Below, piece by piece: positions 9,058-62,500 of a stretch of 64,000 nucleotides of DNA. The DNA lies in assembly GCA_045586015.1 (NCBI GenBank), contig JAZMZP010000013.1:2374-66373 (forward strand). The letters run 5' to 3'. Position 1 is the first letter of the stretch. Each line of letters starts with the position of its first letter. Below the pieces are notes generated by a model. The model saw only the letters and a list, made by a program, of their open reading frames with translations. It was not told the DNA's origin and did not search any database. Source of the stretch: Candidatus Nanosyncoccus sp. GTDB lineage: Bacteria; Patescibacteriota; Saccharimonadia; Saccharimonadales; Saccharimonadaceae. The translations under genes and the position numbers were made by a program.

Positions 9058-9085
9058 TTTATACTCCTTCGCTAGTATTGCCGCC

Positions 9086-9114
9086 ATTATATCACTCGCG
9101 TCAAGTAGGAGCAA
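9086..9114 (-). promoter_or_regulatory. promoter of adhesin gene (TTGCTC-17-TGaTATAAT)
   Basis: Minus strand reads ttgctc-N17-tataat with the TG extension. A ~24-nt leader carries AAGGAG. Confidence 0.5.
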
Positions 9115-9228: not shown

Positions 9229-10845
9229 ATGGGAAAATCAACGATAACATTATTTAGTTTAACAGGCTTAACTCTTCTTTCTGGTCTTATCTTATCTTCC
9301 TCTCGCGTTTCCGCTGACAACTCCGTTATTGACGAAGTCAACATCGTAGTCCCAGTTTCTTGTAGTCTTTCTGGTGTCGGTATGACCTCGCATAATACTA
9401 GTATTAATAACGGCACTTACGCTTCTGATATTGGTACTACTGCTCTGAAAGCTTCGTGTAACGACTTAAACGGTTTTGCTATCTATGCTGCCGGCTATAC
9501 CGGCGATGAGGTAGGCGGAACTGATAGTACTAAACTAGTCGGAGAAAATGATATAGGTAACATCTTAACCGGAACCGGAACTAGCGGTAACTCCCAATGG
9601 GCAATGAAACTGGCTACTGACTCTAACGCTACTTATCCAATTACCATAGAATCAGACGCTAACGGCTCCTTCGCCTCTTATCATATTGTTCCAGAAGACT
9701 TTGTTAAAGTCGCTTCAAGAAACTCTAGTACCGATATCGGCTCGGCTTCTATCGGCGCAGTTCTAACTACGACTTACCAAGTCTACATCTCCGCCACCCA
9801 ACCCGCCGGAACCTACTCAGGCAAGGTTATTTATGCTTTAGTCCACCCAGCTAACCACTCCGCCCCAGTCATTTGTAATGAAAATGCCACTACTATTTCA
9901 GAAGTCAAATGTATGCAGGATTTCGCAACTGTTTCTAGCACCAACCGAACTGCTATTGTCAACTCTATGACTTTAGGACAGCAATACACTCTAAAAGATA
10001 AACGCGATGGAAAAACTTATACTGTCGCTAAACTCGCTGATGGGAATGTCTGGATGACACAGAACTTAGACTTAAATCTAGATTCTGGAACTACTTATAC
10101 TAATTTAGATACTGATATTGGTTATAATACAAGTACCGGAACTTATGATACAGCGGCTTGGAGTCCGACTCGTTCTACTTATGCTACTACTCTTGATGAT
10201 CTTCATGCATGGTGTCAGGGTGGAATTTGGGATTCGGAGAATTATACTTGTACAGATAATACTATTCCTGAATCATACGATGCAGGGGACTTGTATTGGA
10301 ATGGCACTCCTTGGCCTTTAAACCAGGCAGATTGTATCTCAGCGAATGGGGTTTGGGATGATGATTGGTGTAGTGGCGTTGTTGTATCTGGTTCTACTGG
10401 TATTGCGCAGTATCACTTAGGTAATTATTATAACTGGGCGGCAGCGCTCGCGACTAATGATAGCTCGGTGTTTGGCGCCCAGAATCAGAATGAAATAGTC
10501 GAACAATCTATTTGCCCAGTCGGTTGGACTTTGCCAAGGAGTCATGGAAGCGTAGATACATTCCAGGGCCTTTGGGAGGCATATGGATATGATGATGAAG
10601 ATGGGATTGCTAATGTTTCGACTTTATGGTCTAATCCGCTTTATATGCCTCCGAGCGGGTATTATGTGGGTGGCATATATGGGGTTGGGTTTGATGGCAA
10701 TTTTTGGTCAGCGGTTGCTGCTGGGTCGACTGATGCGAGAGCTGCAGCTTTCTATGTTGTCAATTCTACTTATCCGACAAACATTTATGTAAGAGGTAAT
10801 GCTTTTTCTGTGCGTTGCATAGCCCGTCCAGTCGTAAGCGAGTAA
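9229..10845 (+). CDS. secreted surface protein: signal peptide + N-terminal beta-rich module + C-terminal FISUMP (TIGR02145-like) domain
   Basis: Signal peptide MGKSTITLFSLTGLTLLSGLILSSSRVSA. FISUMP motifs KDKRDGKTYTVAKLADGNVWMTQNL, YYNWAAA, CPVGWTLP, FWSA, AFSVRCIARP. Confidence 0.85.
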   Translation: MGKSTITLFSLTGLTLLSGLILSSSRVSADNSVIDEVNIVVPVSCSLSGVGMTSHNTSINNGTYASDIGTTALKASCNDLNGFAIYAAGYTGDEVGGTDSTKLVGENDIGNILTGTGTSGNSQWAMKLATDSNATYPITIESDANGSFASYHIVPEDFVKVASRNSSTDIGSASIGAVLTTTYQVYISATQPAGTYSGKVIYALVHPANHSAPVICNENATTISEVKCMQDFATVSSTNRTAIVNSMTLGQQYTLKDKRDGKTYTVAKLADGNVWMTQNLDLNLDSGTTYTNLDTDIGYNTSTGTYDTAAWSPTRSTYATTLDDLHAWCQGGIWDSENYTCTDNTIPESYDAGDLYWNGTPWPLNQADCISANGVWDDDWCSGVVVSGSTGIAQYHLGNYYNWAAALATNDSSVFGAQNQNEIVEQSICPVGWTLPRSHGSVDTFQGLWEAYGYDDEDGIANVSTLWSNPLYMPPSGYYVGGIYGVGFDGNFWSAVAAGSTDARAAAFYVVNSTYPTNIYVRGNAFSVRCIARPVVSE

Positions 10846-10873
10846 CAACAAAACTGATTTCCTTTTTATGGAA

Positions 10874-11032
10874 AAACAATAGTTTGCAATTTCGAAATAT
10901 GTGAAATCGCCCATATAAAAAATACAACTCTCCGGATTGTTGAGGAAACTGTAATTTCCGAAACAATCCGACGAGCGTTGTATTTTTTATCTTGGTGCGC
11001 ATTTCACCATTGAGAAATGCAAACTACTGTTT
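10874..11032. repeat. ~159-nt imperfect palindrome filling the convergent gap next to the rpsH stop
   Basis: Left arm aaacaatagtttgcaatttc...gtgaaatcgc...aaaaaatacaac...cggattgtt mirrors right arm aacaatccg...gttgtatttttt...gcgcatttcac...gaaatgcaaactactgttt. Confidence 0.7.
10917..10988. terminator. bidirectional intrinsic terminator (core of the long palindrome)
   Basis: aaaaaatacaac ... cggattgtt-loop-aacaatccg ... gttgtatttttt, with an A-run and T-run flanking nested stems. Confidence 0.6.
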
Positions 11033-11434
11033 TTACCAAACCTTGACTAAAATTTCGCCACCTAAACGATTTTTCTTCGCTTCGCGCCCAGTCATTAAGC
11101 CTTTCGATGTAGATATAATAATCATACCTCGTCCAGACTTAACCGTCGGAATATCATCCGCCGAAGAATAGACTCTTCGACCTGGTTTCGAAACTTTCGA
11201 AATCTCGTTAATCTTTGCGTTCGTTCCTTGTTCGTTAATTACGACTCTTAAGAGGCCGCGTGGCTCGCCAGCTTGAATTTCAAAGCTAGAAATGTAACCA
11301 TTTTTCGCTAAAACTTCAACCACTCCTCGTTTTAACTTAGAAGTAGGAACGAGAATTTCATTTTTACCAACCGCTACCGCATTACGAATGCGAGTGACGA
11401 GGTCTGCAATTTGATCTGTAGATTGTAATGACAT
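11033..11434 (-). CDS. rpsH: 30S ribosomal protein S8
   Basis: MSLQSTDQIADLVTRIRNA...; start at the ATG preceded by AGGAGAAAGGAG. Canonical position after S14. Confidence 0.93.
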   Translation of the reverse strand: MSLQSTDQIADLVTRIRNAVAVGKNEILVPTSKLKRGVVEVLAKNGYISSFEIQAGEPRGLLRVVINEQGTNAKINEISKVSKPGRRVYSSADDIPTVKSGRGMIIISTSKGLMTGREAKKNRLGGEILVKVW

Positions 11435-34155: not shown

Positions 34156-34362
34156 ATGGCACAAGCAAAAAAGAAACAAGCTACCAAAACCGCGAAGAAA
34201 CAAACTCGCAGTACTAAAACCGCGCAAAGAAAAACTGGTTCTAAGCAAGCTCGTCGTACTCAATGCGACAATACTGAGCGTAACCACATCTATTTTGTTA
34301 CTGTTCTGGGTTTGATTGCCGCAATCTTGCTCTGCGCAAATGCCGCGATGATGATGGTCTAA
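34156..34362 (+). CDS. small (68 aa) tail-anchored protein: Lys/Arg-rich N-terminus + C-terminal TM helix
   Basis: Own promoter and an AGGAAG SD. MAQAKKKQATKTAKKQTRSTK...IYFVTVLGLIAAILLCANAAMMMV. Confidence 0.55.
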   Translation: MAQAKKKQATKTAKKQTRSTKTAQRKTGSKQARRTQCDNTERNHIYFVTVLGLIAAILLCANAAMMMV

Positions 34363-35588
34363 ACGATTATTCCGCCGCCGAGACAAATCTCGCCGTCGTA
34401 GAATACAGCGCTCTGCCCCGAAGCAGGGCGCTTTATTTTATTCTCAAAATGTAACCTTTCCCCATCGAAACTTGCCGGAATTAAAGGTGCTCGATGTCGT
34501 AAACGAACTAAAAGATTTCTAACCGGCAACTGTGAACTGACTTTCCGGGGGCTTGCGGAGGTTACGACCGAGCATGAGGGCGCTTTCCCCGTGACGACGG
34601 GCGAAAGCGACCCGTCCCCCAGGAAGTCAAGTTCAAGTTGCCGTAATAAGACGTCTTTTAGTCTTAGCTCATTAGTCCATAAATTCTCATCATTCAAATT
34701 TTTCGAAACATAAACGATGTTCTTTTTCAAATCTTTCTTTACGACATAGTACGGCATTCCATCATTTACTACGCCTTTTTCGCCATTTAAATAAAGCCCG
34801 TGCCTTTGCCCAATTGTATAAAATACGGCTCCCTCGTGATATCCTAAGACTTTTTCACTTTCAACTTCGCGAATCTCGCCCGGTTTTATATCAATATATT
34901 CCTTCAAAAAATCCTTCATCCCGACCTCCCCGACAAAACACACCCCCATTGACTCTTTTTTATAAGCGTTATGCAGCCCATTTTCTTTCGCGAGCTTCTT
35001 TACTTCCGGTTTTTTCATCTCTCCGACCGGAAAAAGCGTATGGGCTAAAGCCTCATCGCTAATTCGATAGAGAAAATACGTCTGATCTTTATTTTCATCG
35101 ATAGCCCTAAGCAAGACGGGGGTATCTGAAAATGTTTGATTCGGGACCGTAAGCTTGGCCGAACGGCCTTGAGTGTGTCCCGAATCAAACATTTTAGATA
35201 CCCTAGTTCTTGCATAGTGTCCAGTCGCGATAAAATCCGCCCCTTCTTCCATCGCTTTCTCATAAAACAGCTTAAATTTAATCTCTTGATTACACATAAT
35301 ATCCGGATTCGGCGTATTCCCTTTTTTAAATTCCGAAAGCATATACTCGACGACTTTCTGTCGGTATGCTTCCTCAAAATCCCACACAAAAAAATCAATC
35401 CCAAGTTTCACAGCCACTCTCTTCGCATCTGCCAAATCCTCTGCCCACGGGCACTTCATCCCCGGAAGATCCCTAGACCAGTTTTTCATATAAACTCCAA
35501 CTACTTTATAACCCTGTTCTTTTAAAAGTAGTGCTGCTACACTCGAATCTACGCCCCCACTCATCCCGACATAAACCGTCTTAACCAT
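34359..35588 (-). CDS. mnmA: tRNA 2-thiouridine(34) synthase MnmA, carrying two in-frame insertions
   Basis: PP-loop GMSGGVDSSVAA, NPDIMCN, ATGHYAR, KDQTYFLY, SGQSAVFYDGEICLGGGII. Confidence 0.93.
   Translation of the reverse strand: MVKTVYVGMSGGVDSSVAALLLKEQGYKVVGVYMKNWSRDLPGMKCPWAEDLADAKRVAVKLGIDFFVWDFEEAYRQKVVEYMLSEFKKGNTPNPDIMCNQEIKFKLFYEKAMEEGADFIATGHYARTRVSKMFDSGHTQGRSAKLTVPNQTFSDTPVLLRAIDENKDQTYFLYRISDEALAHTLFPVGEMKKPEVKKLAKENGLHNAYKKESMGVCFVGEVGMKDFLKEYIDIKPGEIREVESEKVLGYHEGAVFYTIGQRHGLYLNGEKGVVNDGMPYYVVKKDLKKNIVYVSKNLNDENLWTNELRLKDVLLRQLELDFLGDGSLSPVVTGKAPSCSVVTSASPRKVSSQLPVRNLLVRLRHRAPLIPASFDGERLHFENKIKRPASGQSAVFYDGEICLGGGIIV
34545..34622. repeat. G+C-rich palindromic element inserted in-frame in the mnmA 3' part (family member 1)
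   Basis: ccgggggcttgcggag...gggcgctttccccgt-gacg-acgggcgaaagcgaccc...gtcccccagg. Shares termini with 36481-36588. Encodes DGSLSPVVTGKAPSCSVVTSASP, absent from MnmA homologues as I recall them. Confidence 0.6.
35120..35203. repeat. 84-nt hairpin element (27/26-nt inverted arms) inserted in-frame in mnmA
   Basis: gggtatctgaaaatgtttgattcggga - 31-nt loop containing ggcc-gaac-ggcc - tcccgaatcaaacattttagataccc. Its 28 codons fall between the conserved GHYAR and KDQTYFLY motifs. Confidence 0.7.
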
Positions 35589-36852
35589 TTATTCGCTCGC
35601 TTTCTTTAGCTACAATCTCATTGATAATCTTCGCCGCTTCACGAATTTGAGCCTCGTCATTAGTTTCCCCAAGCGAAATTCTAAGAGAGCCCGTAATTTG
35701 GACATCCGTTAAACCAATCGCCTTTAAAACATGTGATTTTTCGCCCTTCGAAGCCGCACAAGCCGCCCCTGTTGCAACATATACCTCCGACCCCTCAAGA
35801 AGAAAGATTAATCTCTCTGCATCTATACCATTATAGCACAAAACAACGAAATTGTCAAGAGAGTGCTTACGGCTAATCAATTCATACCCCTGTAATTCAG
35901 CCAATAAAATCTTTTTCAAATTAGCATATTTTTTTCGATTTCCATTCAAATGTTCCTTTGCAAGCTCAACTGCCTTCGCGAACCCAATCACACCTGGCAC
36001 ATTTTCCGTCCCCGACCTTAACCCATTCTCTTGCCCCCCGCCAACCGTCAAAGGTTTTAATCTCGCCTCGTGTGAAACATATAACGCTCCAACCCCCTTC
36101 GGCCCATACACCTTCGCAGCGTTTAAAGTCAAAAGATCAATTCCCATCCTCGCAACATTAATATCAAGTAAATTTAAAGCCTGTGACGCATCGGAATGCA
36201 ATAATAATTGTGTTTTAATTCCCCGTTTCATCCGGTCTAACTTCACTTCGCGAATAATCCTCGCGACCTCCGCCAACGGCTGAATCGTCCCGAGCTCATT
36301 GTTTACGAGCGAAACCGAAATTAACTCCGTCTCATCAGTAATCTTAGACTTTAAATCATCCAAATCAATCAACCCGTTCGGAAGCACCTTAATACTCTCC
36401 CCCCCATATCTCTCCGCAACTCTCCGCACCGAATCATGCTCAGTCACAAGATAGAGCACGGTCGGAATCTGCTTATCGAAGGGGGTGCGGAGCGCGGCAG
36501 CGCGAGCTAAAGCGCGCGAGCCCCGTGGCAGACCGCCCCTTGGGACGCGGACGACCCGAAGGGTCGACGGGAGCGAGCGACGCGCCCCAAGAGAAGCAGA
36601 TTCGACCGTCCCTAAAGCTGTAAACGCTAAATTATTCGCTTCGGTCGCCCCAGCGGTAATGATGAGGTCAGAGGCTTTCGCTCCGATTGCATGCGCAATC
36701 GTCGCTTTTGCGTTCTCATAATCAGCCGCCACCTTCTTTGCCGGCAAATACGCCGCCGACGGATTAAAGAAATCATCAGAAAAATACGGCTTCATCGCCT
36801 CGAAAACTTTTTTCGATACCGGCGTCGCCGCCGCATGATCAAGATAAATCAT
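35581..36852 (-). CDS. cysteine desulfurase (NifS/IscS class V aminotransferase) carrying one in-frame G+C-rich insertion
   Basis: MIYLDHAAATP, HSDASQA, PLP-Lys context LNAAKVYGPKGVGALYV, C-terminal GAACAS. Overlaps the mnmA start by 8 nt (operon). Confidence 0.9.
   Translation of the reverse strand: MIYLDHAAATPVSKKVFEAMKPYFSDDFFNPSAAYLPAKKVAADYENAKATIAHAIGAKASDLIITAGATEANNLAFTALGTVESASLGARRSLPSTLRVVRVPRGGLPRGSRALARAAALRTPFDKQIPTVLYLVTEHDSVRRVAERYGGESIKVLPNGLIDLDDLKSKITDETELISVSLVNNELGTIQPLAEVARIIREVKLDRMKRGIKTQLLLHSDASQALNLLDINVARMGIDLLTLNAAKVYGPKGVGALYVSHEARLKPLTVGGGQENGLRSGTENVPGVIGFAKAVELAKEHLNGNRKKYANLKKILLAELQGYELISRKHSLDNFVVLCYNGIDAERLIFLLEGSEVYVATGAACAASKGEKSHVLKAIGLTDVQITGSLRISLGETNDEAQIREAAKIINEIVAKESERING
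36481..36588. repeat. 108-nt G+C-rich element inserted in-frame in the cysteine desulfurase gene (family member 2)
   Basis: gggggtgcggag...cgaccc-gaa-gggtcg...gacgggagcgagcgacgcgcccc. Its 36 codons encode GARRSLPSTLRVVRVPRGGLPRGSRALARAAALRTP between EANNLAF and VTEHDSV. Confidence 0.65.
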
Positions 36853-39285: not shown

Positions 39286-39294
39286 ATTATATCA
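39286..39294 (-). promoter_or_regulatory. extended -10 (TGATATAAT) whose TGA is the tatD stop codon
   Basis: Minus strand reads tgatataat-tagggt-ATGgaa. Confidence 0.5.
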
Positions 39295-40041
39295 CGAAAC
39301 GCTTGAAAAGTCAACCCCAAACAGGTCAAAAACGTTATCTGTAGTGGTTTTTGCCACCTCTTTAACAGATATCTCTAATTTTTCCGCTAACCACTTCGCA
39401 ATATCGGCAATATATGCCGGCTCATTAGTTTCGCCTCGATGCGGAGTCGGCGCCAAAAATGGCGCATCAGTCTCGAGGAGAATTCTCTCAAGTGGCGGGG
39501 TTGGCAAAGTTGAATAAGTCGCAAGCCCGTTCACCCCGACATAAAAATCAGTTTCATTCAAAATCCGCTTTAGGACCTTTTTGCTGTCCGTAAAAGAATG
39601 CACCACACCACGTACCTTCGGAAAATTGCTCACCACCGCAAAAAAGTCCGAGAAAGCTTCTCTGACGTGGAACGAAACCGGCAAACCATTATCAATCGCC
39701 ATCTGCAACATTTCCTCGAATAACTTAATCTGCGCCTCTCGGTCATAACCCTCATAATGATAATCTAGTCCCACTTCCCCGATAGCTACAAGTTTATCTC
39801 GCTCGGGGGCACGCCCCGAGTAAGACAAACTTGTAGCTTGTTCGGGGTGAATGCCATAGGTCCAATAAACATTATCGTGGGAATTAGCGAAATCGCGCGC
39901 AGCTAACGAATCTTCGTGCGATGTCCCGATGCAGATAATCTTCTCGACGCCTCTTTTTTTAGCTCGTTTAATCATCTCTTCGGCTTGTTTCGCCGTAAAA
40001 AACTCTCGGTCGTGGAGATGACAATGCGAATCAATTAGCAC
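39292..40041 (-). CDS. tatD: TatD family metal-dependent DNase/hydrolase
   Basis: [26 protein letters not shown]..., LLETDAPFL motifs. Overlaps the typA 3' end by 11 nt. Confidence 0.92.
   Translation of the reverse strand: MLIDSHCHLHDREFFTAKQAEEMIKRAKKRGVEKIICIGTSHEDSLAARDFANSHDNVYWTYGIHPEQATSLSYSGRAPERDKLVAIGEVGLDYHYEGYDREAQIKLFEEMLQMAIDNGLPVSFHVREAFSDFFAVVSNFPKVRGVVHSFTDSKKVLKRILNETDFYVGVNGLATYSTLPTPPLERILLETDAPFLAPTPHRGETNEPAYIADIAKWLAEKLEISVKEVAKTTTDNVFDLFGVDFSSVS
39784..39838. repeat. 55-nt nested hairpin inside the tatD coding sequence
   Basis: agctacaagttt-atctcg-ctcgggg-gcacg-ccccgag-taagac-aaacttgtagct, with a perfect 12-bp outer stem and a perfect 7-bp inner stem. Confidence 0.6.
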
Positions 40042-44161: not shown

Positions 44162-44164
44162 TAT

Positions 44165-44247
44165 GGACGGGTGGCGCAAATAGGGGGACCCCCAAAATAT
44201 TTGCGTAGGCAAAATTTTGGGGGAAAATTTTTTGGAAGGACCCGTCC
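44165..44247. other. 83-nt structured element between convergent genes, with mutually exclusive hairpins
   Basis: Outer pair ggacgggt/acccgtcc. Inner alternatives are cgcaaata/tatttgcg versus cccccaaaat/attttggggg. A T-run lies at 44228-44233. Confidence 0.5.
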
Positions 44248-44251
44248 AGAA

Positions 44252-52414: not shown

Positions 52415-55400
52415 TTACGGCGCCATTATAACCCATGGGTCGGTAGCTGTACCAGTCCCATCGGAAGGAGTCGTTCCGTCTTGTAGTGAAACAACAGGGC
52501 GAATACCATAAGCGGCGTCAACACGACCGTTTTGCATGTAACCATTAGTATTCATATAGAAATTGTAAGCGTATGAGCCATAGCGATAATATGGTGACAT
52601 AGTCCAGAAGGTAGAACCGGTTCGAAGGAAGGAATTGGCATTGTATCCTGAACCTTGGTTAGCGGTTTGGCTACCAGAACCAGCAAAGCTTGCTTCGTCG
52701 GCCGTAATTAAGGCTACTGGCGCGGCCAATTGTCCATTACCACCGGCCGAAGTGCTAGTACTATACACATCTACAGTACTTTTACTGCAGCCTAAGCCTG
52801 GGACCTTTGATGTACCAATATTTCTAGTGTATGCACCAAAGTAGGCTCTATAAGTCGCGCCAGTCTGGTTCGTATTAGTCGTGTACGAACGTAGAGTCGA
52901 TGTGGCGGTAGAACCCGAAGTATTCTGGAAAGCTGAGCGATCGTTGCAATAACCAGCATTTGGTTCTAGTATGCTCGTATAACTTGTCAAATTAGAGTTA
53001 TACCAACTTTCGACATTTCCTTTAATTGTAGAATTAGTATTATTAACAGAATAATTAGAATTACTACCGAACAATGTGTCTGGAGTTTGAGTAGAGTTTG
53101 ATGTTGTAGCATAAGTACTATTATGCGTATAGCCTACGCGTACGGCTTGACGAGCTACCGAAGTAGTGTTTGCAGTCCCGTTGAAGGTGCTTGTGGCGAC
53201 CGGCGAGCTAATCTGTGCACTAGTTGTCGCATTCGCGCAGGTCGAGCCAGTCCAATTCCCGTTATAAATCATCTTCGTTCCACCAGAACCAGTTGTTCTA
53301 ATAATTCTCCAACAAGTATCTGCCGTCGTCTTGGTCCCGTCGGCGTCTAAAATAACATAGTTAGGATAAGCCGCCCCATCGCCATTAGATCCGTAAGTTC
53401 CGGTAGTATTATCAAGAATCCCACGATAGTAATAAATAGTAGCCTTAGTATTGTCGCCTTTAGCCCCATCAGTATCCGCACCAAACGCTGTACTGTTGTA
53501 TTCATAAACACCCGAATTGGAGGCATTAAGACTTGCCTGAAGATTAGCTGCAGTTTGCGTTCCTCTGCTTTGATCTTCGACTTCTTCATATAGAGTTTTA
53601 CGCGTTGTTCCGGAAGTGTAATGTGCAAATAGCGTATCAGTTGTTACGGCTGATGAATTGAAGGTGGTTCTAATCCATCGACCGTTTGCATCGGTCCAGT
53701 CGGCGACTGAGTTTTGAATATTGCCGCTCCCATCGATTACTTGGTTCCCTCCGCTGGATGCAGTCCACCAACCATCAAACACCTGACCGGTTGGTGGTGT
53801 AGCTGAAGGAATCGTCCCGACGGTTGTCGCTGTGCGTGAAGAATAAGTTGTCGAATTTTCATAGGCTACATATACCGGGCTAGTCCCACTCAAAGTTCCA
53901 CCATTCGCATCGAAATTAATTCGAGAATTAAATCTCGCTACTGTAGTTCTATTCGCAACTGTACTTCCAGTCCCCGTTCCAGTTCCCGAAGTACAAGTAG
54001 ACGTAATAGAGCTGTCTGTCTTATCGGTAACCGTTACTCTTACACCATAGTATCTTGTATCGTAAAAACCATTGCTACCATTGTCAGTATTATTTTTAGT
54101 TATCTCATAGGTATTCCCGGCTTGAGTGGCACTAAAGTTACCCAAGGTATTAGTAGCAGAAGACCCATAGCCAAATGAATAGACGATATCCGCGCTACTA
54201 GTATCATAACTAGATGAATTATCTGTCGCTGTAAGTATAGTCGAAGCATAATTAAACACTTTCGTATCGCCACCTTGAATTGTACAAGTTGGCGTGATAA
54301 GGCCAGTAGCGCCTATCGTAATCGTTCCAGCCCCAGAACCAACCGTAAAAGTAGAACCACTGATACTACCACTACCAGCACTAGAGTAGCTCGTTCCGGT
54401 ATATCCAGTTTTCCGAGTTGGTGCAATTGTTGAAAGGTCAATCGTATCTCCGGCACTAAAGGCTTTTGTTAAAGTCCCAGTCCCACTTCCAGTCCAACCC
54501 GAAGCGGTAAGCGTAGAAATACCAGGACCGGCATTAATAGTCACAGTATAGCTAGAACTATTTCCATTTACGCATCTAACTGAGAGACCTTCTGCCTTGG
54601 GCCCATCCCAAGTTCCGCCAGCCACACCATTATCACCAAAGTTATAATGGAAGCCATTAGTTCCACTTTTCGTTGTAGATGTCCAATAATAACCATAGAC
54701 TCCCCTATATTCATTTGAGCTATTGTTCAAAATTCCTGAATAAATAAAATTATTAGGATAAGTTCGAATCGCTTTTGAAGCGTCGGTCCCCTCGGTATTA
54801 TTATCATCAATCCAAATCGGTGTGGTGGAGGTTGTATATTGCGCAGGCGGCGCACCAATTAAAGTCAACCATAAATTATAAATATCGTTAGTGTTAGCAT
54901 TTTGGATTATGTCTCTGTCTCCACCTCGCGGAAGTCTCCAGCCAGTCGGGCAAATAGATGTACTAGCTGTTTCAGAGGAAGTTGTTGTTGTAAAATCAGT
55001 CGTATTCGCAAGCGCTGCTGCGAAAGAATAATAATTACCATAGCCATAAACGTTAGCATTGGTTGTAGACATATTGCTGACAGCAGCATTGGTATTTCTA
55101 TTGTGATAGCGCGGGAATCTGTATCCTTGGTTACTCCCCGTAATATTACTAGTGCTATATTTGCTATTAGAAGTTGTAGAAGCAATAAAGTTACTTGTTT
55201 CGGCTGTAGCTAACCCCGAGAACGCTCCTCCGAAACCTTGTGCTTTAGTACCATCACTCGAATTCGTCGCCTCTAATCTCATATTCTCAATCATCCAACA
55301 ATTATTATCAGCTAGTTTAGCTACCGCATAGGCTTGGCTATCCCTCTGATCGGTCAAAGCAATCACATCGCCAGTATTCATAGAGTCGCAACCCTGCCAA

Positions 55401-56398
55401 TTTTGCAAATAAGCATTCTGGGCTGGTTTTACCCATATCGCATACATAGTGACGTAATATATGCCATTCTGTTCAACGGCTTGTGCCAAAAAATTCGTAT
55501 CGACAGTAACTACCTCGTTTGGACCAAATACTTTTCCAGCAGCCTTAGCTGTAGCCAAATCAGTTTGGAATGAAGCGGAGTCCGGATTGAGTTGTATAGT
55601 AGACCAACCCGCAAATCCATAACCTTGGCGTTGGTAATTGGAAGCAGCTAGCGTCACTTCATCGTTTTCTACAATGTTATGAGTAATACTCATTGTGGTC
55701 GCGGAGTTAGCCCCATTATCGTCATATTTAATTGCATAGCTGGCACAATTAGCTCCAGTGGTCAAATAATAAACTATTGTATCGTCGCCAGCACCTTGTG
55801 ACGATTCGGCTAACGTATATGTCCCTGAAGCAGTAGTACCGGATACCGAAACGCCATAATAAACCGAAAAACTATCTCCTCCGGAGGAAGAAGCACTCGC
55901 TTTAGTTTTGATTTGTGTTTGGGTACTAGTTAATCCGATAAAATTAGAAGACACCGTAGTATTATTTGCTGTACTATATCCCCAAGTCCCTAAATTATTC
56001 CCCAGAATAGATACTGGGTTAGAAACAGTTCCAGAAGATGCTGGGATAGTATCGCTGCTAGTATTATCTCCGCCTTTATATAGTGTATTATCAGTAGGAC
56101 CAACAATAGATACTGCGTAACCAGAGGGACAATCAGAACTAACTACTATATTATCGGTGCCTAGACTGGCCTTATCTCCAAACGACGCAACATCAACCGT
56201 GACATTACCAGAGGTAGAGATGGATGCGGTGTAAGCGGAAACGCTCGAAGAGATAAAACATATATTGTAAACACCAGATATTACGAATCCAAAAAACAAC
56301 ATAGTTACAATATTAAGGAGACTAATAAAGCTTACCTCCCTAACACCGGAACGATACCTCCGTACCAGAGCACAATTATAGCTATTTTTTCCTCGCAC
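52415..56398 (-). CDS. giant surface protein (about 1300 aa): N-terminal anchor + beta module, InlB-B/Listeria-Bacteroides-type repeat, FISUMP domain, one ~305-aa repeat unit, conserved ~400-aa C-terminal domain
   Basis: FISUMP motifs TDQRDSQAYAVAKLADNNCWMIENM, YGNYYSFAAALA, CPTGWRLP, YWTST, LSVRCVNG. B-repeat motifs GYGFAGWST...MYAIWV and INFDANGGTLSG...FDGWWT. The C-terminal domain is shared with the next gene. Start codon uncertain (the GTG at 56398 abuts its SD). Confidence 0.85.
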   Translation of the reverse strand: MRGKNSYNCALVRRYRSGVREVSFISLLNIVTMLFFGFVISGVYNICFISSSVSAYTASISTSGNVTVDVASFGDKASLGTDNIVVSSDCPSGYAVSIVGPTDNTLYKGGDNTSSDTIPASSGTVSNPVSILGNNLGTWGYSTANNTTVSSNFIGLTSTQTQIKTKASASSSGGDSFSVYYGVSVSGTTASGTYTLAESSQGAGDDTIVYYLTTGANCASYAIKYDDNGANSATTMSITHNIVENDEVTLAASNYQRQGYGFAGWSTIQLNPDSASFQTDLATAKAAGKVFGPNEVVTVDTNFLAQAVEQNGIYYVTMYAIWVKPAQNAYLQNWQGCDSMNTGDVIALTDQRDSQAYAVAKLADNNCWMIENMRLEATNSSDGTKAQGFGGAFSGLATAETSNFIASTTSNSKYSTSNITGSNQGYRFPRYHNRNTNAAVSNMSTTNANVYGYGNYYSFAAALANTTDFTTTTSSETASTSICPTGWRLPRGGDRDIIQNANTNDIYNLWLTLIGAPPAQYTTSTTPIWIDDNNTEGTDASKAIRTYPNNFIYSGILNNSSNEYRGVYGYYWTSTTKSGTNGFHYNFGDNGVAGGTWDGPKAEGLSVRCVNGNSSSYTVTINAGPGISTLTASGWTGSGTGTLTKAFSAGDTIDLSTIAPTRKTGYTGTSYSSAGSGSISGSTFTVGSGAGTITIGATGLITPTCTIQGGDTKVFNYASTILTATDNSSSYDTSSADIVYSFGYGSSATNTLGNFSATQAGNTYEITKNNTDNGSNGFYDTRYYGVRVTVTDKTDSSITSTCTSGTGTGTGSTVANRTTVARFNSRINFDANGGTLSGTSPVYVAYENSTTYSSRTATTVGTIPSATPPTGQVFDGWWTASSGGNQVIDGSGNIQNSVADWTDANGRWIRTTFNSSAVTTDTLFAHYTSGTTRKTLYEEVEDQSRGTQTAANLQASLNASNSGVYEYNSTAFGADTDGAKGDNTKATIYYYRGILDNTTGTYGSNGDGAAYPNYVILDADGTKTTADTCWRIIRTTGSGGTKMIYNGNWTGSTCANATTSAQISSPVATSTFNGTANTTSVARQAVRVGYTHNSTYATTSNSTQTPDTLFGSNSNYSVNNTNSTIKGNVESWYNSNLTSYTSILEPNAGYCNDRSAFQNTSGSTATSTLRSYTTNTNQTGATYRAYFGAYTRNIGTSKVPGLGCSKSTVDVYSTSTSAGGNGQLAAPVALITADEASFAGSGSQTANQGSGYNANSFLRTGSTFWTMSPYYRYGSYAYNFYMNTNGYMQNGRVDAAYGIRPVVSLQDGTTPSDGTGTATDPWVIMAP

Positions 56399-56528: not shown

Positions 56529-59500
56529 TTAAGGAGCTTTAATTATCCACGGATCGGTCGCCGTACCAGAGCCAATTGCTGTAGCAGTTCCAGGTTTGAG
56601 CGAGATTACCGGGCGAACGCCTGTCGTAGTTGTACCAGTACTGATGTATGTCATTGCGCCATCCGTATTAATCTCAAATACGTTCGCGATACCAGTAGTC
56701 GCGCGGTAATATGGCGAGAGGAGGATAAATTCACTACCAGAGTTAAGGAATGAATTCGGATCATAGTCAGAACCATTTTCAGCCGCAATACGGTTACCCG
56801 AACCTGCGAATGATGCCTCATCTGCCGTAAGTAGCGCCGCCGCTCTAGTTAATTGTTTGTTGCCATTTGACGCGGCGCTCGTAGTATATAGATCTGCTGT
56901 ACTGCGTGGACAACCTAAGCTTGGGACTTGAGCAGTATTAACGTTACGGACTAGTGCTCCAAAGTTATAGCGGGTAGCACTGGTAGCATATTGAGCAACC
57001 GACACAGAATCGCCCTGAAGAGTATATGGGGTTGTATTACTATAAACTGTTCTATCGTTACAATACCCAGCACTAGGCTCTAAGATGCTCTGGTATGCAC
57101 TTACTCCATTAGCGCCAGTAAACCAAGTGCCTTCAATATAAGATTTAATGGTAGAGTTAGCAGAGTTATTAGCGAAGCTAGTATTAGTACCGAATGTGTT
57201 CCCGAGTGTTCTAGAAGTCGTTGATGTACTCGCATAGCCACTTCTATAGGTATAACCAACCCGTACCCATTGTCTTGAAGTCGTGTCGTCGGAACCATTG
57301 AATGCGCTTGTGCTGACTTGGGCGCTTGTAGTAGCGTTCGCGCAAGTAGAACCCGTCCAGTTCCCGTTATAAATCATCTTCGTTCCGCCTGAGCCAGTAG
57401 TTCTTACAATCCTCCAGCAAGTATTACCGAGTCTTACGTAATTCGGATAAGCTGCGCCATCACCGTTCGAACCATAAGTCCCAGTAGTATTATCAAGGAT
57501 GCCACGATAGTAGTAAATCTTGTAATTATTAGCTGCGTCGGTTGCCGCACCGAATACCGAAGAATTATATTCATATACCCCAGAGTTAGATTTAGTAATG
57601 TTCGCTTGAAGGTTTGCAGAGGTTTGTGTGCCCTTACTCTGCTTTGCGACATTATTGTAAAGGACCTGGCCGGCCATACAACGTACCGAATCGCCACGAT
57701 AAGTATAATTTTCAGTTGTAGCAGGAAAGACATATGTATCTCTGAATGCGAACCTATGACCACTGCCGGATAGGTGTTTAGTCGATGACCAATAATTATT
57801 AACTAAGCCTCTATCGTGAGCACTAGATCCGTCGAAGCGCCCAGAATACACAAAGTTATATGGGTATGCTCTTAGAGCTTTTGAAAGATTGGAACCCTCT
57901 CCAGCCAAATTATCGTCGGTGTATAGCCATTCATTGTCCGAATTAAATCCAGTCGGTGCTGCTCCTGCTAGAATGTAACTGAGATTATAGTAATCACTAC
58001 CGCTACTCTCTATTTTTTCTTTTTCGCCGCCAGTAGGTAGTCTCCAACCCGCTGGGCAGATAGATGTACCAGTAGATTCGGAATCATAAGGATAGAGTGT
58101 ATTTGTAGTATTAGCGGTCGCCGCCGGCCAGTTGTAATAGTTACCATAGCTATAAACATTTTGATCTGGGTCGGTCATTTCGGAAACTGTAGATTGCGTA
58201 TTGACATTATTGTAGCGCGGAATTCTATAGGCTTGATTATCTCCAGTAACATTACTCGTGCTATATTTACTATTTGCGGTCGTAACTTCGGCGAAGTTTG
58301 CATTCTCGGCATTAGCAAGTCCAGTAAATACTCCGCCATATCCTTGTGAAAGCGCTTGGTTTGTTGAGCCGGTTGTTCCCGCTGCCTCTAGTCTTAGGTT
58401 CTCAATCATCCAATAGTTCCCATCCGCATATTTAGCGACCGCATAGACCTGGTTATCGCGTGCGTCTTTAAGCGCGGTTACGTAACCAACTGGCTTAGAG
58501 TCAAGTGTACTATTATCGTTAAGTGTAACGGTTAGGAGGTTATTAGTTTGGAAGGTCAAGACATTATTAGAACTATCTTTAGCCGGCTCAACCCACATCG
58601 CATAAAGCTTCAAACTATCATTGTTTATTATATCAAGCGTTGTCTCGTCATCGATTGTCGCATTTGGACCATACATCGTTCCGCTTCCATCAGGCTCAGT
58701 ATTCCAGCCCGCAAACCCATACCCGCTTCTCTGGAAGTTTGATGCCCAAAGATTTACCGAAGTAGCACTAGAAGCAACGCTCTGGTTCCCCATCGTCGTT
58801 GAGCTATTTGCGCCATTATCATCGTAACAAATTACACCAGTAGCTCCACAAGGAAGATCTCTGTATTGCGCGTAAAGAGTATTGGCGTTTGAATTGTCGA
58901 GCGTACTAGTCAGAATCCATTGTCCACTTTCGTTTACCCAACCACTAACCGTAACCATACTTCCATCGTCATCAATAACTTTTGGTTGACCTTGCTCCGG
59001 TGCCAAATACCAACCTGCAAATACTTTTCCTGTTGGCGGAGTTACAGTTGGGATATTTCTTGTCGAGAATCCAGTGCGACTAGAATAAGTATTACTATCT
59101 TCATAAGACACATAAACTGGATTAGAATGACTCAAAGTCCCGCCATTAGGATTAAAATTAATTCTAGCGTTATACAACCTCATAATAGTTCTGGCCGCAT
59201 AAGAGTCACCACTATTCACCAATCCGCCCGTAGAAGTGCAAGTCGAAGTAATCGAACTATCAGTATTATCGGTTACGGTTACACGAACACCATAAATTCT
59301 TTCACCACGAAAGGCATTTTTAGCAACATAGAATTCATTTTTAGGCGTAGATGAACTCTGTGTAAAGTTAGCCAAAGCACCACTTAATGAAGTAGCATAT
59401 CCAAATTCGTAGACAATACTTACGCTACTCGTATCATAACTAGATGATACATCCATTGCCGTAAGCTTCGTGTCTGTATAATTATAAACTTTCGTATCTC

Positions 59501-62500
59501 CACCTTTAATTTCACAAGTTGGTGTATTAATCCCAGTAGCACTAATTTCAATCGCTGCAAGACCATTACCAACTGTAAATATTGAACCATTCAATTCCCC
59601 TCTTCCGGTAGCTTTTAAATACGCAACTCCAGAATAACCAGTCTTATAGGTAGGAATAATCGTAGATAAATCTATCGTCTCGCCTTCCACAAATTCTTTT
59701 ACCAAAGATCCGGTTCCAGTCACAGTCCAACCTGAAGCACTAATTGAGGCAATACCAACTCTGGGTATAATCTCAATTTGATGAGTAGGCACATAATGTG
59801 CATACAATACATTAACGGAATTATTGTCGGTTGTATTTGTAAGAATCCATTGACCACTCGCATTCGTCCACCCAGAAACCGAGCTCTGGATATTTCCATC
59901 TTTGTCAATTACTTGGGTCCCATTAGTTGGATCCGTCCACCACCCATTAAAGGCATTCCCGGATGGCGGCGTCACAGTAGGCAAAGAACTTACTACACCA
60001 GAAGTACGAGAGACATAAACATTCGCACTAGTATAAGAAACATAAGAATAACCGCCACCACTCCCACCATTTGCATTGAAATTAACTCTAGCATTCACTT
60101 TTGTAACTGTAGTCCTATTTGCGACAGTAGACCCAGTCGCGGTTCCAGTTCCCGAAGTACAAGTAGTTGTAATAGAACTATCAGTTTTGTCAGTAACCGT
60201 GACAGTTACACCATAATACCTCGTTCCTCTAAATGCTCCTCTCGTCACATTATAGGTATTCTCATCTTGAGTAGAGCTAAAGTCTACTAATGTGCCTGAC
60301 GCAGAAGAAGCATAACCAAACGAATATGTGATATCTACACTGCTAGAATCGTAATTAGACGAATTATCGGTAGCAGTTATAGTTGTTGGAACATAAGCAT
60401 AAACTTGCGTATCTCCGCCAGTCATCTTGCAGGTTGGTGTATTAAGCCCAGTAGCCTTAAATGTAATAGTCCCAGCGCCAGAGCCAACTGTAAATGTAGA
60501 ACCGCTCAAAGTACCACTACCACTAGTCTTTGAATAAGAGCTGCCAGTATAACCAGTCTTATCAGCCACAGTAATTGTAGAAAGATCAATTGTTTCGCCA
60601 GCCGCAAACTCTTTTGTCAATGTTCCAGTCCCAGATCCAGTCCAACCCGAGGCGGTAAGGGTAGAAATTCCAGCCCCAGCATTGATTGTTATAGTATATA
60701 CATTTATAAATTGTGCATATAACGTATCCCCAGCCACAGCATTAGCATTAGTCGTAGTTCTAGCCCAATTCCCGTTTTCAACCCAATCAGGAATAGAAGA
60801 AGCTGCAAAATCCCAAAATGGATCAATAACTTGTGCTCCGCCAGAGGCCGCAGTCCACCAGCCGTTAAACTTCTTTCCAGCAGGAGCGGTTACGTCAGGG
60901 ATCCCTCTAAGCGTAGTAGCGGTACGTGAAGAATAAGCCTGATTTTTTCCATAAGCCACATATACCGGATTGCTATGGCTTAAAGTCCCGCCGTTAGCGT
61001 TAAAGTTGACTCTAGAGTTATAACGATATACTGCAGTTCTATTAGTAGCTCCAGTCCCCGAAGTACAAGTAGACGTAATAGAACTATCAGTCTTGTCAGT
61101 CACAGTCACCTTTACGCCGTAATACCTAGTGTCGTAGAATGCATCCTTTGCGACGTCATAAGTATTGCCAGCTTGTGCAGTACTAAAGTTACCAAGAGTT
61201 CCGGTCGCGGAAGTATTGTAGCCAAACGAATATGTAATGTCTGCACTGTTCGTATCATAGCTAGATGAAACATTTGTTGCAGTAAGGTTTGTCGCAGCAT
61301 AATTATAGACTTTCGTATCACCGCCACTAATTGTACAGGTAGGTGTATTAAGCCCAGTCGCCTTAAATGTAATAGTCCCAGCGCCAGAACCAACTGTAAA
61401 AGTAGGAGCGCTGAAAGTACCACTACCACTAGTCTTTGAATAAGAGCTGCCAGTATAACCAGTCTTATCAGCCGCAGTAATCGTAGAAAGATCAATTGTT
61501 TCGCCAGCCGCAAATTCTTTAGTAAGTGTTCCAGTCCCAGTACCAGTCCAACCAGAAGCAGTAAGCGTAGAGATTCCAGCCCCAGCATTGATTGTTATTG
61601 TATAGGTGTTTACATATCGCGCGTATAAAGTATTGACCGTAGTATTATCAGTAGTGCTTGTCAGAATCCATTGGCCATTTCCATTGGTCCATCCATCAAC
61701 CGGACCAACGATACTTCCAGAAGCATTAATTACTTGGTATCCGCCAGTTGATTGTGTTGTATACCATCCATCGAATTTTTTACCAGCAGGAGCAGTTACG
61801 GTCGGAATCGCCCTAGTCGTAGTCGCGGTTCGCGAAGAATAAGTCGCTGAGTTCTCAAATGCTACATAGACCGGGCTAGTTCCGCTCAAAGTCCCGCCAT
61901 TAGCATTAAAGTTAATCCTAGAATTATACCTAGAAACAGTAGTCCTATTCGCAACCGTAGTACCAGTATTAGAACCAGTTCCAGAAGTACAAGCACTCGT
62001 AAGTGAGCTATCGGTTTTGTCGGTTACGGTAACTTTTACGCCGTAATACCTTACATTATAGAAGGCATCTTTAGCTACATCATAAGTATTACTAGCTTGT
62101 GCAGTACTAAAGTTACCAAGCGTTGCAGTCGTAGACGTAGCATAACCGAATGAATATGTAATGTCCGCGCTGCTCGTATCAAAGTTAGACGCGTTAGATG
62201 TTGCGGTTAAAGTCGTCGCGGCATAGTTATAAACCTTCGTATCGCCACCCTGAATTGTACATACAGGAGTATTAAGCCCAGTCGCCTTAAATGTGATAGT
62301 TGCGGCTCCTTCGCCTACCGTAAACGTAGAACCGCTCAAAGTACCGCTACCACTAGTCTTTGAATAGGAACTCCCAGTATACCCAGTCTTATCAGTCACA
62401 GTGATCGTAGAAAGATCAATTGTCTGTCCAGCTTCAAATTCCCTAGTAAGTGTTCCAGTTCCACTTCCAGTCCAGTCCGAAGCAGTAAGTGACGAAATCC

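Follow-up and report, generated by a model that had tools for sequence, protein, structure and literature searches.

In the stretch of DNA analysed here, 64,000 nucleotides of contig JAZMZP010000013.1 of Candidatus Nanosyncoccus sp. (assembly GCA_045586015.1; from here on, the window), two strongly G+C-dominated blocks lie inside mnmA and inside a cysteine desulfurase gene. The question raised by this locus is what these blocks are, and how they came to lie within housekeeping genes without destroying them. The initial annotation of the window had described them as palindromic elements inserted in frame, with a behavior like that of the Rickettsia palindromic elements (RPE), and had named DNA from a high-GC donor or host as the alternative source. 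We consider it probable that the blocks are the cores of non-autonomous hairpin repeats that are translated in frame and colonize the genomes of gut Saccharibacteria, where they are copied and then filtered by selection. The elements occur in many dispersed copies, some orthologues have them and others do not, and the copies that survive within genes keep the frame and use only the stop-free frames of the core.

Hairpin elements in mnmA, iscS and tatD

The G+C content of the window is 41.5% overall (60-nt windows: mean 41.5%, standard deviation 7.8%), and the blocks at 34545-34622 (70.5%) and 36481-36588 (77.8%) are its top two G+C islands. As the initial annotation had stated, the frame is unbroken, both blocks being located within uninterrupted open reading frames (ORFs). 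The extent then given to the elements has to be revised, since the G+C blocks, real as they are, are merely the cores of longer hairpins with outer arms of 20-25 nt and ordinary composition. The elements around the two blocks are called here E1 and E2. A third in-frame hairpin, E3, and a remnant in tatD, E4, are additional to the blocks noticed at first, and the 64-kb window contains in all one copy each of the families fam1, fam1b and fam3 together with the remnant (Table 1).

Table 1. Position of the hairpin elements, of their parts and of their host genes in the window.
Feature	Position	Strand	Length	Remarks
mnmA (tRNA 2-thiouridine synthase)	34359..35588	-	409 aa	host gene of E1 and E3
Cysteine desulfurase gene (IscS/NifS family)	35581..36852	-	423 aa	host gene of E2
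tatD	39292..40041	-		Pfam TatD_DNase
E1, complete fam1 hairpin element in mnmA, C-terminal hot spot (site B)	34524..34643	-	120 nt	inverted repeat I1
E1 core	34548..34619	-	72 nt	69% G+C; three-way junction
E2, fam1b hairpin element in the cysteine desulfurase gene	36460..36608	-	about 149 nt	inverted repeat I22
Mini-hairpin S, in the apical loop of E2 helix P2	36529..36564	-	36 nt	G+C-rich; seen against the un-nested fam1b copies L033 and L050
E3, fam3 hairpin element in mnmA, hot spot after HYAR (site A)	35120..35204	-	85 nt	inverted repeat I2, 19/19 bp
E4, core-less hairpin in tatD	39784..39838	-		arms, then CGGGG-CGTGC-CCCCG; inverted repeat I3, 25 nt at 88%

E1 is a typical member of fam1 (nhmmer with the fam1 model, E=1.4e-20), with its core between a left and a right arm of 24 nt each, and it is read in frame as ..RQLELDFL GDGSLSPVVTGKAPSCSVVTSASP RKVSSQLP... 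In the core, the four G-C pairs (GGGG/CCCC) that close the long stem P1 lead to two hairpins, P2 and P3, and three of the six reading frames are without stops. As RNA, E1 folds with -69 to -72 kcal/mol (z -7.4/-8.4). E2 consists of arms of about 20 nt, a G+C-rich core and a nested insert, and its reading is ..TVESASL GARRSLPS TLRVVRVPRGGL PRGSRALARAAALRTP FDKQIPT... It belongs to the sister family fam1b (nhmmer, E=1.9e-4), whose core can be written GGGGYCGCGTC..CCCGTCGCCACGGG..GCGCTAATTCTCGCGCTGCCGCGCTCCGAAATGCCCC, with the peptide ..RPAGPSPRAAGANSRAAALRNAPSQ... The fold of E2 is less extreme by its z values (-3.6/-5.2), and the energies of E1 and E2 as RNA together span -69 to -81 kcal/mol. 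Both internal hairpins pointed out in the initial annotation exist: helix P2 of E1 has cccgt-gacg-acggg as its apex (CCCGT-CGTC-ACGGG), and cgaccc-gaa-gggtcg lies within the 36-nt insert nested in E2.

It had also been proposed that E1 and E2 share their termini. On a direct comparison this similarity is marginal, as the local alignment has z = 2.7 and 45 of 2000 shuffles score as well or better; what supports the relatedness is the membership of the two elements in their families. The cores of fam1 (72 nt) and fam1b (about 75 nt) have a common layout of three helices around a three-way junction, and the core of fam3 measures 38 nt.

At the same loop of IscS, orthologous copies of fam1b are found in L033 and L050 (L numbers denote the compared loci), and outside IscS the family occurs in TatD (L003), at site B of MnmA (L022) and elsewhere. 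The mini-hairpin S, read in other frames or from the other strand, accounts for DPSGRPRPKGRS within a fam1 copy (P0003), for RVVRVPRGG within a fam3 copy (P0011), and for PPLGTRTTRRVDG in P0022. BLAST gave no further DNA copy of it in the compared loci, and its recurrence is visible at the peptide level only. Nested extensions are also present in P3 of the fam1 copies L007, L059, L072 and L052. Taken together, E2, L007/L059/L072, L052, P0003 and P0011 show that the elements can sit in one another's apical loops.

In E3, a core without G+C enrichment (38 nt, GGACACACTCAAGGCCGTTCGGCCAAGCTTACGGTCC) lies between arms of 23/24 nt; the arms contain a perfect segment of 19 bp, and the stem can be extended to about 26-28 bp with one bulge (z -11.5/-9.6). 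A metagenome scan with 24 core bases of fam3 yielded 34 further stretches. In the 36 fam3 copies analysed (E3 and 35 others) the core is unchanged and the arms are wholly different, being near-perfect stems of 10-30 bp that are unrelated between loci. The fold of E4 has z -11.1, and the elements as a whole give very stable hairpins, with z from -3.6 to -11.5. In other genomes the loop that carries E4 holds elements of fam1b (L003) or fam1 (L050, L053), and E4 itself recurs in tatD of L001 with 77% identity and with arms that still pair. E4 looks like a fam1 or fam1b element minus its core, and in L035 there is what looks like a deletion footprint. As a separate observation, a gene pair for a HaeIII-type restriction enzyme and a cytosine methyltransferase adjoins tatD in L005 (2704-4664) and is absent from the window.

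Dispersed copies, empty sites and open frames

The initial annotation implied that further copies and empty orthologous sites should exist, and both were found. For fam1, a 21-base core pattern (GGGGACGGGTCGCTNNNNNCCGTCGT) was searched in one genome each of 185,579 species and gave 72 matches in 70 stretches, about 69 of them in metagenome-assembled genomes of Ca. Saccharibacteria or Nanosyncoccus from sheep, goat and other guts. Single genomes contain 5-8 copies under this strict pattern, with a maximum of 8 in RGIG5615. Two matches in high-GC genomes (L017, L074) come without the rest of the element and are chance matches. Another one (L011) lies on a 2.4-kb contig binned as Acutalibacteraceae; it has the full element, and the contig is thus probably a mis-binned piece of Saccharibacteria. 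None of the Rickettsia among these species genomes matched the fam1 core. The viral contigs scanned with the pattern gave no match either, and nothing thus points to a phage vector.

About three quarters of the fam1 copies are within long ORFs, in either orientation. According to Pfam, the host genes encode GatB, LeuRS, TruB, Obg, LepA, Der, UvrB, RarA, DnaX and TsaE/TsaB, and furthermore RecG, PheT, a GT4 glycosyltransferase, a DNA methylase and a Wzy-like protein, apart from MnmA, IscS and TatD. A single family can be present at different sites and in different genes.

The 120 best homologues of the MnmA of the window (347-486 aa), whose closest members bear Saccharibacteria (TM7) names, revealed two hot spots, site A after HYAR and site B before VRLRHRAPL, each being either short and constant or filled with recurrent types of insert. 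Site A is empty in 31 of the 120 proteins, with a native loop of 7 aa, and filled in 89; site B is empty in 29, with a native loop of 11-18 aa, and filled in 91. At least 8 types of insert occupy the filled sites, and the loop lengths are multimodal. The MnmA of the window has no exact match among the records; a protein 99% identical to it exists, solely on a 3.6-kb contig. These data show that in essential proteins the elements recur at a few permissive loops.

Empty orthologues are available for each of the three in-frame elements of the window. L003 lacks E1 by a net 105 nt (35 aa), and L001, which is syntenic with the window at about 80% nucleotide identity over 20 kb, lacks E2 (net 141 nt, 47 aa) and E3 (net 78 nt); E3 is absent from L003 too. 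E2 and E3 are missing in this closest relative yet present in more distant genomes, which means either clean loss or recurrent gain. Alignments with solved structures place all three inserts in gaps between conserved blocks: about 28 extra residues ahead of the C-terminal beta strands of MnmA for E1, 21 after HYAR for E3, and about 36-40 between the ATEANNLA helix and the VLYLVTEHDS strand of IscS for E2. It was therefore right that homologues of MnmA and IscS are contiguous where the blocks lie and that residues have been added, but the sizes first given, about 26 and 36 residues, are too small compared with the net 35 and 47 residues by which E1 and E2 exceed the empty sites. In an AlphaFold model of MnmA, of mediocre quality (mean predicted local distance difference test score, pLDDT, 64.6), residues 132-154 and 319-352 are coils of pLDDT<50 between beta strands; the modelled position of the inserts agrees with surface loops.

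With such copy numbers and empty sites, the reading of the blocks as ordinary lineage-specific loops, or as high-GC fragments from an actinobacterial host, is refuted, and we give it a negligible probability. Its appeal was the contrast in composition with the rest of the genome; the same sequences are, however, repeated at many loci and in many genes, and the core pattern is absent from viral contigs and, the two chance matches aside, from high-GC genomes.

Some features of the surroundings may be recorded here. In the window, mnmA and iscS have 8 nt in common (35581-35588), and in L001 (8373-9911) two additional genes lie between them, one for a 344-aa Flg_new-domain protein and the other a 129-aa ORF. 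On the other side of mnmA, towards serS, there is a 67-aa ORF (34159-34363, + strand) with a Lys-rich N-terminus, a hydrophobic tail and no Pfam match; ORFs of 66-69 aa occupy the equivalent position in L001 and L003.

The use of reading frames was counted over 77 fam1 matches, a number that includes L001, L002, L005, the window and the two chance high-GC hits. In 32 matches the core is read in top frame 0, giving GDGSLAPVVTGLAPSSSVVTSGSP; in 34 it is read in the sole open frame of the bottom strand, giving GLPEVTTEDEGASPVTTGASDPS; and 8 use the third open frame, which is Arg-rich and is the frame also used by E2. The remaining three frames of the core contain stops and are never used inside genes. 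The copies outside long ORFs, about 17 in number, are truly intergenic and have a different complete gene on either side (FtsA|MetAP, PilM|EF-P, ParA|L21 and Adk|S21), usually abutting the stop codon of the upstream gene, and none splits a gene. This pattern of stop-free frame use without split genes is the one expected from selection on translated inserts. In addition, the core may contain frameshifts that compensate each other and keep the ORF open, as in MnmA variants such as GDG-VAGARRHGAS-..SVVTCGSP. In P0015, P0019, P0023 and P0039 (sites A and B of MnmA), inserts like GDGVAGARRHGASAPHPSVVTCGSP run from frame 0 to the Arg-rich frame and back to frame 0. Such changes show that what is conserved is the DNA and not the peptide.

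Host proteins would remain unaltered if the elements were cut out of the RNA at the base of the stem, in the manner of an intron, and the ends then ligated, or if the ribosome bypassed them as in T4 gene 60 or in the mitochondrial 'byp' elements. The long stem does join the host-gene flanks, and for essential enzymes some inserts are large. Nevertheless, an element that is excised or bypassed would escape any constraint of frame, and the strict frame use of the intragenic copies, all of them in frame and stop-free, argues against such a removal. The compensated frameshifts, which again preserve the ORF, and the lack of a match to any ribozyme or intron family point in the same direction, so that we regard this explanation as very unlikely.

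Conserved cores, co-varying arms and the folded strand

The core and the arms of the fam1 elements behave in different ways. The 22 nt that flank the core are 86% complementary to each other within a copy (66 further fam1 copies) and 57% complementary between copies. From locus to locus the arms show 59% identity (50% in the shuffled baseline), and the information that they hold is limited to the 3-4 bases adjoining the core; the cores are 87% identical outside the search pattern. For the co-variation test we used a gapless alignment (A3) of 42 fam1 copies, the three-helix structure and 500 shuffles. Paired cells amounted to 82.8%, versus 70.4% in the shuffles and 35-58% when the partners were slid by 1-3 columns. 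Doubly changed cells numbered 291, a value that 0 of 500 shuffles reached, their own count being 110 +/- 11. In P1, 24 of the 28 pairs co-vary, and P2 (GC/CG 28:11) and P3 (CG 20, UA 20) co-vary as well. The arms are kept complementary, then, through compensatory changes.

A second regularity concerns the strand that folds. On the top strand of the core, arm mismatches are A.C in 56 cases and G.T in 21 (p=8e-5); counted with respect to the mRNA strand, neither type prevails (33:33). With the arms alone, the bottom strand folds better in 49 copies and worse in 8 (p=3e-7), an advantage present whether the gene has the same orientation (16:4) or the opposite one (22:2), and in intergenic copies too (11:2). 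For the core, the bottom strand has the better fold in 63 of 64 copies. As this asymmetry is independent of the direction of the gene, the fold that is kept is that of one strand of the element and not that of the host transcript. It is compatible with a single-stranded DNA form or with an element-specific RNA, and not with an mRNA signal. An attempt to relate the orientation to replication by the GC skew of the flanks was abandoned: the skew was positive on the top strand in 51 of 69 copies, but it is confounded by the gene strand ('opposite' class, 13:15).

The asymmetry also bears on the possibility that the elements are functional nucleic-acid modules kept by the host (protein-binding sites, terminators or attenuators, RNase III or mRNA-stability signals, or parts of chromosome organization), their translation being a side effect. 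That the folding follows the strand of the core rather than the mRNA would agree with it, as would the co-variation in all three helices, the arms of core-less E4 that still form a hairpin in two genomes, and the intergenic copies at stop codons, which is the place of a terminator. So would the conservation of the core. In orthologous pairs of copies, identity is 75% in the flanks, 81% in the arms and 94% in the core, and in paralogous pairs it is 59% in the arms and 93.5% in the core, both core values being inflated because copies were selected by the core pattern; among window, L001 and L005, a trio not selected in this way, identity is 85% in the core and 75-80% in the gene, most differences being compensated changes in P2. 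On the other hand, the distribution is patchy even between close relatives (E2 and E3 are missing from L001, and each MnmA site is empty in about 25% of the proteins), families and orientations are interchangeable at one loop, and the wobble pairs are unbiased on the mRNA strand. Moreover, no Rfam family matches, and most copies are in essential coding regions, where a terminator or an RNase III site would do harm. For these reasons a host function of this kind seems rather unlikely to us. Regarding the RNA searches themselves, Rfam 15 gave no match at gathering score in the window, and at E<=10 only a spurious mir-190 on the E3 hairpin; ARAGORN found no tRNA or tmRNA there. A hammerhead-like or tRNA-like nature of the 72-nt core was considered and discarded, as no motif supported it and ARAGORN and Rfam were negative.

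The reading that we favor, repeats that are copied and afterwards filtered by selection, would involve the following steps. A trans-acting activity would act on the hairpin as a folded single strand of one polarity and copy the core, together with some or all of the arm sequence, to new sites. Selection would then purge the insertions that break the frame, and in-frame, stop-free copies located in tolerant surface loops would persist, and their transcription and translation would add disordered residues to the loop; the cores, by their high G+C, would keep several frames open in an A+T-rich genome. Either hairpin-templated correction (template switching) or selection acting on the fold might preserve the arms as palindromes and lengthen them. 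Finally, copies would be lost through deletion across the hairpin, and what is left would be a clean empty site or, as in E4, a remnant without a core.

Several points weigh against this reading. All the related sequences are from metagenome assemblies, and retention of the inserts in mRNA and protein is deduced from frame use alone. No transposase or other mobilizing enzyme was identified, although whole genomes were not scanned for transposases. [quoted passage not shown] No target-site duplication is visible at the junctions of E1, E2 and E3, and in fam3 the direct repeat at the hairpin averages 0.71 nt, compared with 0.48 nt in the control. A core more conserved than the flanking genes is unlike pure junk and leaves room for a host-level function or for gene conversion. 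In the fam1b copy at site B of mnmA in L022, the left arm is the conserved native MnmA sequence WVDELELKELLFR, and the stem of about 36 bp reaches into the VRLRHR codons, thereby taking in conserved native codons on either side; here the palindrome has spread into functional coding DNA. The net insertions, moreover, go from the core only to the whole hairpin, and some arms are partly native; the moving unit is therefore not defined.

The last two points are shared by the proposal that the hairpins are not mobile as units. According to it, palindromes would grow in place by template switching (quasipalindrome correction) in a lineage with reduced hairpin repair, and at most the G+C cores would be exchanged, by gene conversion or insertion into loops. 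The arms are indeed specific to the locus in sequence and length, their composition follows that of the local genome (L095), and no target is duplicated. Net insertions at sites other than site A are often 90-99 nt, near the size of the core plus one arm. The cores nested in apical loops are in agreement as well, and so is the loop of LepA, where the core is found in both orientations between arms about 83% identical and where empty orthologues exist. Nevertheless, site A of MnmA has a constant native loop of 7 residues, which is exceeded by entire hairpins (117 nt for fam1, 78 nt for fam3); the copies at sites A and B of one mnmA gene have 17 of 24 arm bases in common, and the arms of several non-orthologous loci chain together, for example L015 and L033. 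These facts indicate that arms can travel with the core, and identical cores at dozens of loci would still require a mechanism of transfer. We therefore find this proposal unlikely. Three simpler schemes were rejected. A plain flip in place at LepA does not agree with frames that are 1 nt apart, with arms of different length and with a TGA in the antisense frame of exact register. That both arms are always borne by the element is contradicted by the native arm of L022, and that in every case the adjacent target, copied in inverted form, supplies one of the arms is contradicted by the whole extra hairpins at site A and by the likeness of arms across non-orthologous loci.

A more specific proposal, which we advance only tentatively and do not regard as the probable one, is that a short, conserved, strand-specific core, in fam1 and fam1b a T-shaped three-way junction, is mobilized as a folded single strand which inserts preferentially at locus-specific palindromes, or builds them around itself, while a process that maintains pairing extends the palindromes into coding sequence. 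Such elements would represent a new class of hairpins. If this were true, a hairpin-directed enzyme or a repair deficit typical of Saccharibacteria or of the Candidate Phyla Radiation (CPR) would be implied, and the process would be a continuing source of new surface loops in essential proteins.

Relation to known repeat systems

The elements described here recall first of all the RPE, of about 150 bp, which form ten families (RPE-1 to RPE-10) with 44 in-frame insertions in R. conorii (PMC10969869, summarising Ogata et al. 2000). Like them, they are palindromic, about 100-150 bp long and divided into several families, with dozens of copies in the reduced genome of a symbiont or parasite, and they lie in frame in unrelated housekeeping ORFs, at presumed surface loops, no transposase being associated with either (PMC10969869). 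E1 (120 nt), E2 (about 149 nt) and E3 (85 nt) resemble RPE in size and in their stable folds, and the dispersed in-frame copies in unrelated housekeeping genes and the empty sites add to the resemblance. In this sense the behavior proposed in the initial annotation was supported. The differences are also clear. The host is a member of Saccharibacteria/CPR, and the fam1 pattern finds no match in Rickettsia, in a comparison made without direct alignment to an RPE consensus. Here the G+C-rich core is conserved, and the arms differ at each locus and co-vary; both orientations and up to three frames are used, so that there is no single conserved peptide; elements are nested in loops and fold in a strand-specific manner; and one protein is hit at the same two loops by different families in about 75% of the lineages. 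With sequences that are unrelated and confined to Saccharibacteria, the likeness to RPE is one of analogy and not of membership.

In-frame MITEs are another possible parallel (intragenic ERIC, BOX, Correia/NEMIS, Nezha and other cyanobacterial elements). They too are small, non-autonomous, multi-copy and hairpin-forming, and they occur between and within genes, sometimes at gene ends as possible terminators (PMC10969869, PMC2229807). Unlike them, our elements are conserved at the center and not at the ends, with arms about 59% identical between loci, no conserved terminal inverted repeat and no target-site duplication; nor is a related insertion sequence known here.

Short G+C-rich mobile palindromes in an A+T-rich genome are also represented by the G+C clusters, double-hairpin elements and 'byp' elements of fungal mitochondria, which are organellar, measure 30-55 nt and, in the case of the byps, are skipped by the ribosome. 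For mobile palindromes rich in G+C they are the nearest parallel. They can lie in coding genes, and in yeast var1 a G+C cluster is in frame within one. The elements of Saccharibacteria are longer and bacterial, and their frame use argues for read-through translation. The coding palindromes of the mitochondria of Nematomorpha are long, near-perfect inverted repeats in functional genes that are maintained with both arms translated, a situation comparable to L022; they have neither a shared mobile core nor dispersed families, and they lie in conserved regions instead of inserted loops (PMC6649704). For palindromes that reach into conserved codons, as the one of L022 does, they are the nearest parallel.

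A structural analogy, and no more than this, exists with the repetitive extragenic palindromic sequences and bacterial interspersed mosaic elements (REP/BIME) and their REP-associated tyrosine transposases (RAYT), with integron attC sites and with parvovirus hairpins, all of which are recognized or active as a folded single strand of one polarity (PMC3733652). REPs are extragenic palindromes of 20-40 nt, rich in G+C and bearing a GTAG or CGTC tag; the present elements are of 85-150 nt and about 75% intragenic. In attC sites, which lie between cassettes, the outer R boxes are conserved and the center is variable, which is the reverse of the arrangement found here, within genes. The terminal repeats of adeno-associated virus are hairpins with a three-way junction that exist in a 'flip' and a 'flop' orientation. 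The elements described here were not linked to any HUH nuclease or integrase.

What is new with respect to these systems is the three-way-junction core with co-varying, locus-specific arms, the nesting in loops, and the better folding of one strand whatever the direction of the gene. No description of such elements in Saccharibacteria or CPR was found in the full-text literature, most subscription journals being outside its scope. The hairpin repeat families of Saccharibacteria are real and widespread, and so far apparently undescribed. This is of consequence for organisms whose genomes are tiny and assumed to be streamlined, and in which about three quarters of the MnmA proteins of the clade nevertheless carry 25-60 repeat-derived residues at each of two loops. 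It would be a second, independent case of the phenomenon known from Rickettsia, in an unrelated symbiont with a reduced genome, and it suggests a general link between genome reduction, or the loss of hairpin-processing repair, and the tolerance of translated selfish DNA. The annotation of CPR proteins, the alignment of their orthologues, phylogenomics and structure prediction are all affected. Furthermore, the elements offer a tractable system for the creation, maintenance and movement of palindromes in bacteria, as well as strain-level insertion/deletion markers for gut Saccharibacteria.

Other features of the window are mentioned for completeness. Its gene content, which together with the closest relatives places it in Ca. 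Saccharibacteria (TM7), includes serS, an HPF-like gene, secA, mnmA, iscS, tatD and a DUF1846 gene, and on the - strand there are very large ORFs at 3352-9114 (1920 aa), 52415-56398 (1327 aa) and 56529-63845 (2438 aa), presumably for surface proteins. At 10869-11037, downstream of the ORF 9229..10845, there is a nested hairpin between genes, rich in A+T, about 170 nt long and almost perfect (-77.6 kcal/mol); it had no match in the compared loci and may belong to another family of hairpin elements. A further family is represented by the hairpin at 44164-44249, with ends GGACGGGTGG.../...GGACCCGTCC, located between a dCMP deaminase gene and a gene of the uracil-DNA glycosylase (UDG) family: it is 83% identical over 69 nt to a hairpin of L101 that is itself host to a fam3 core.

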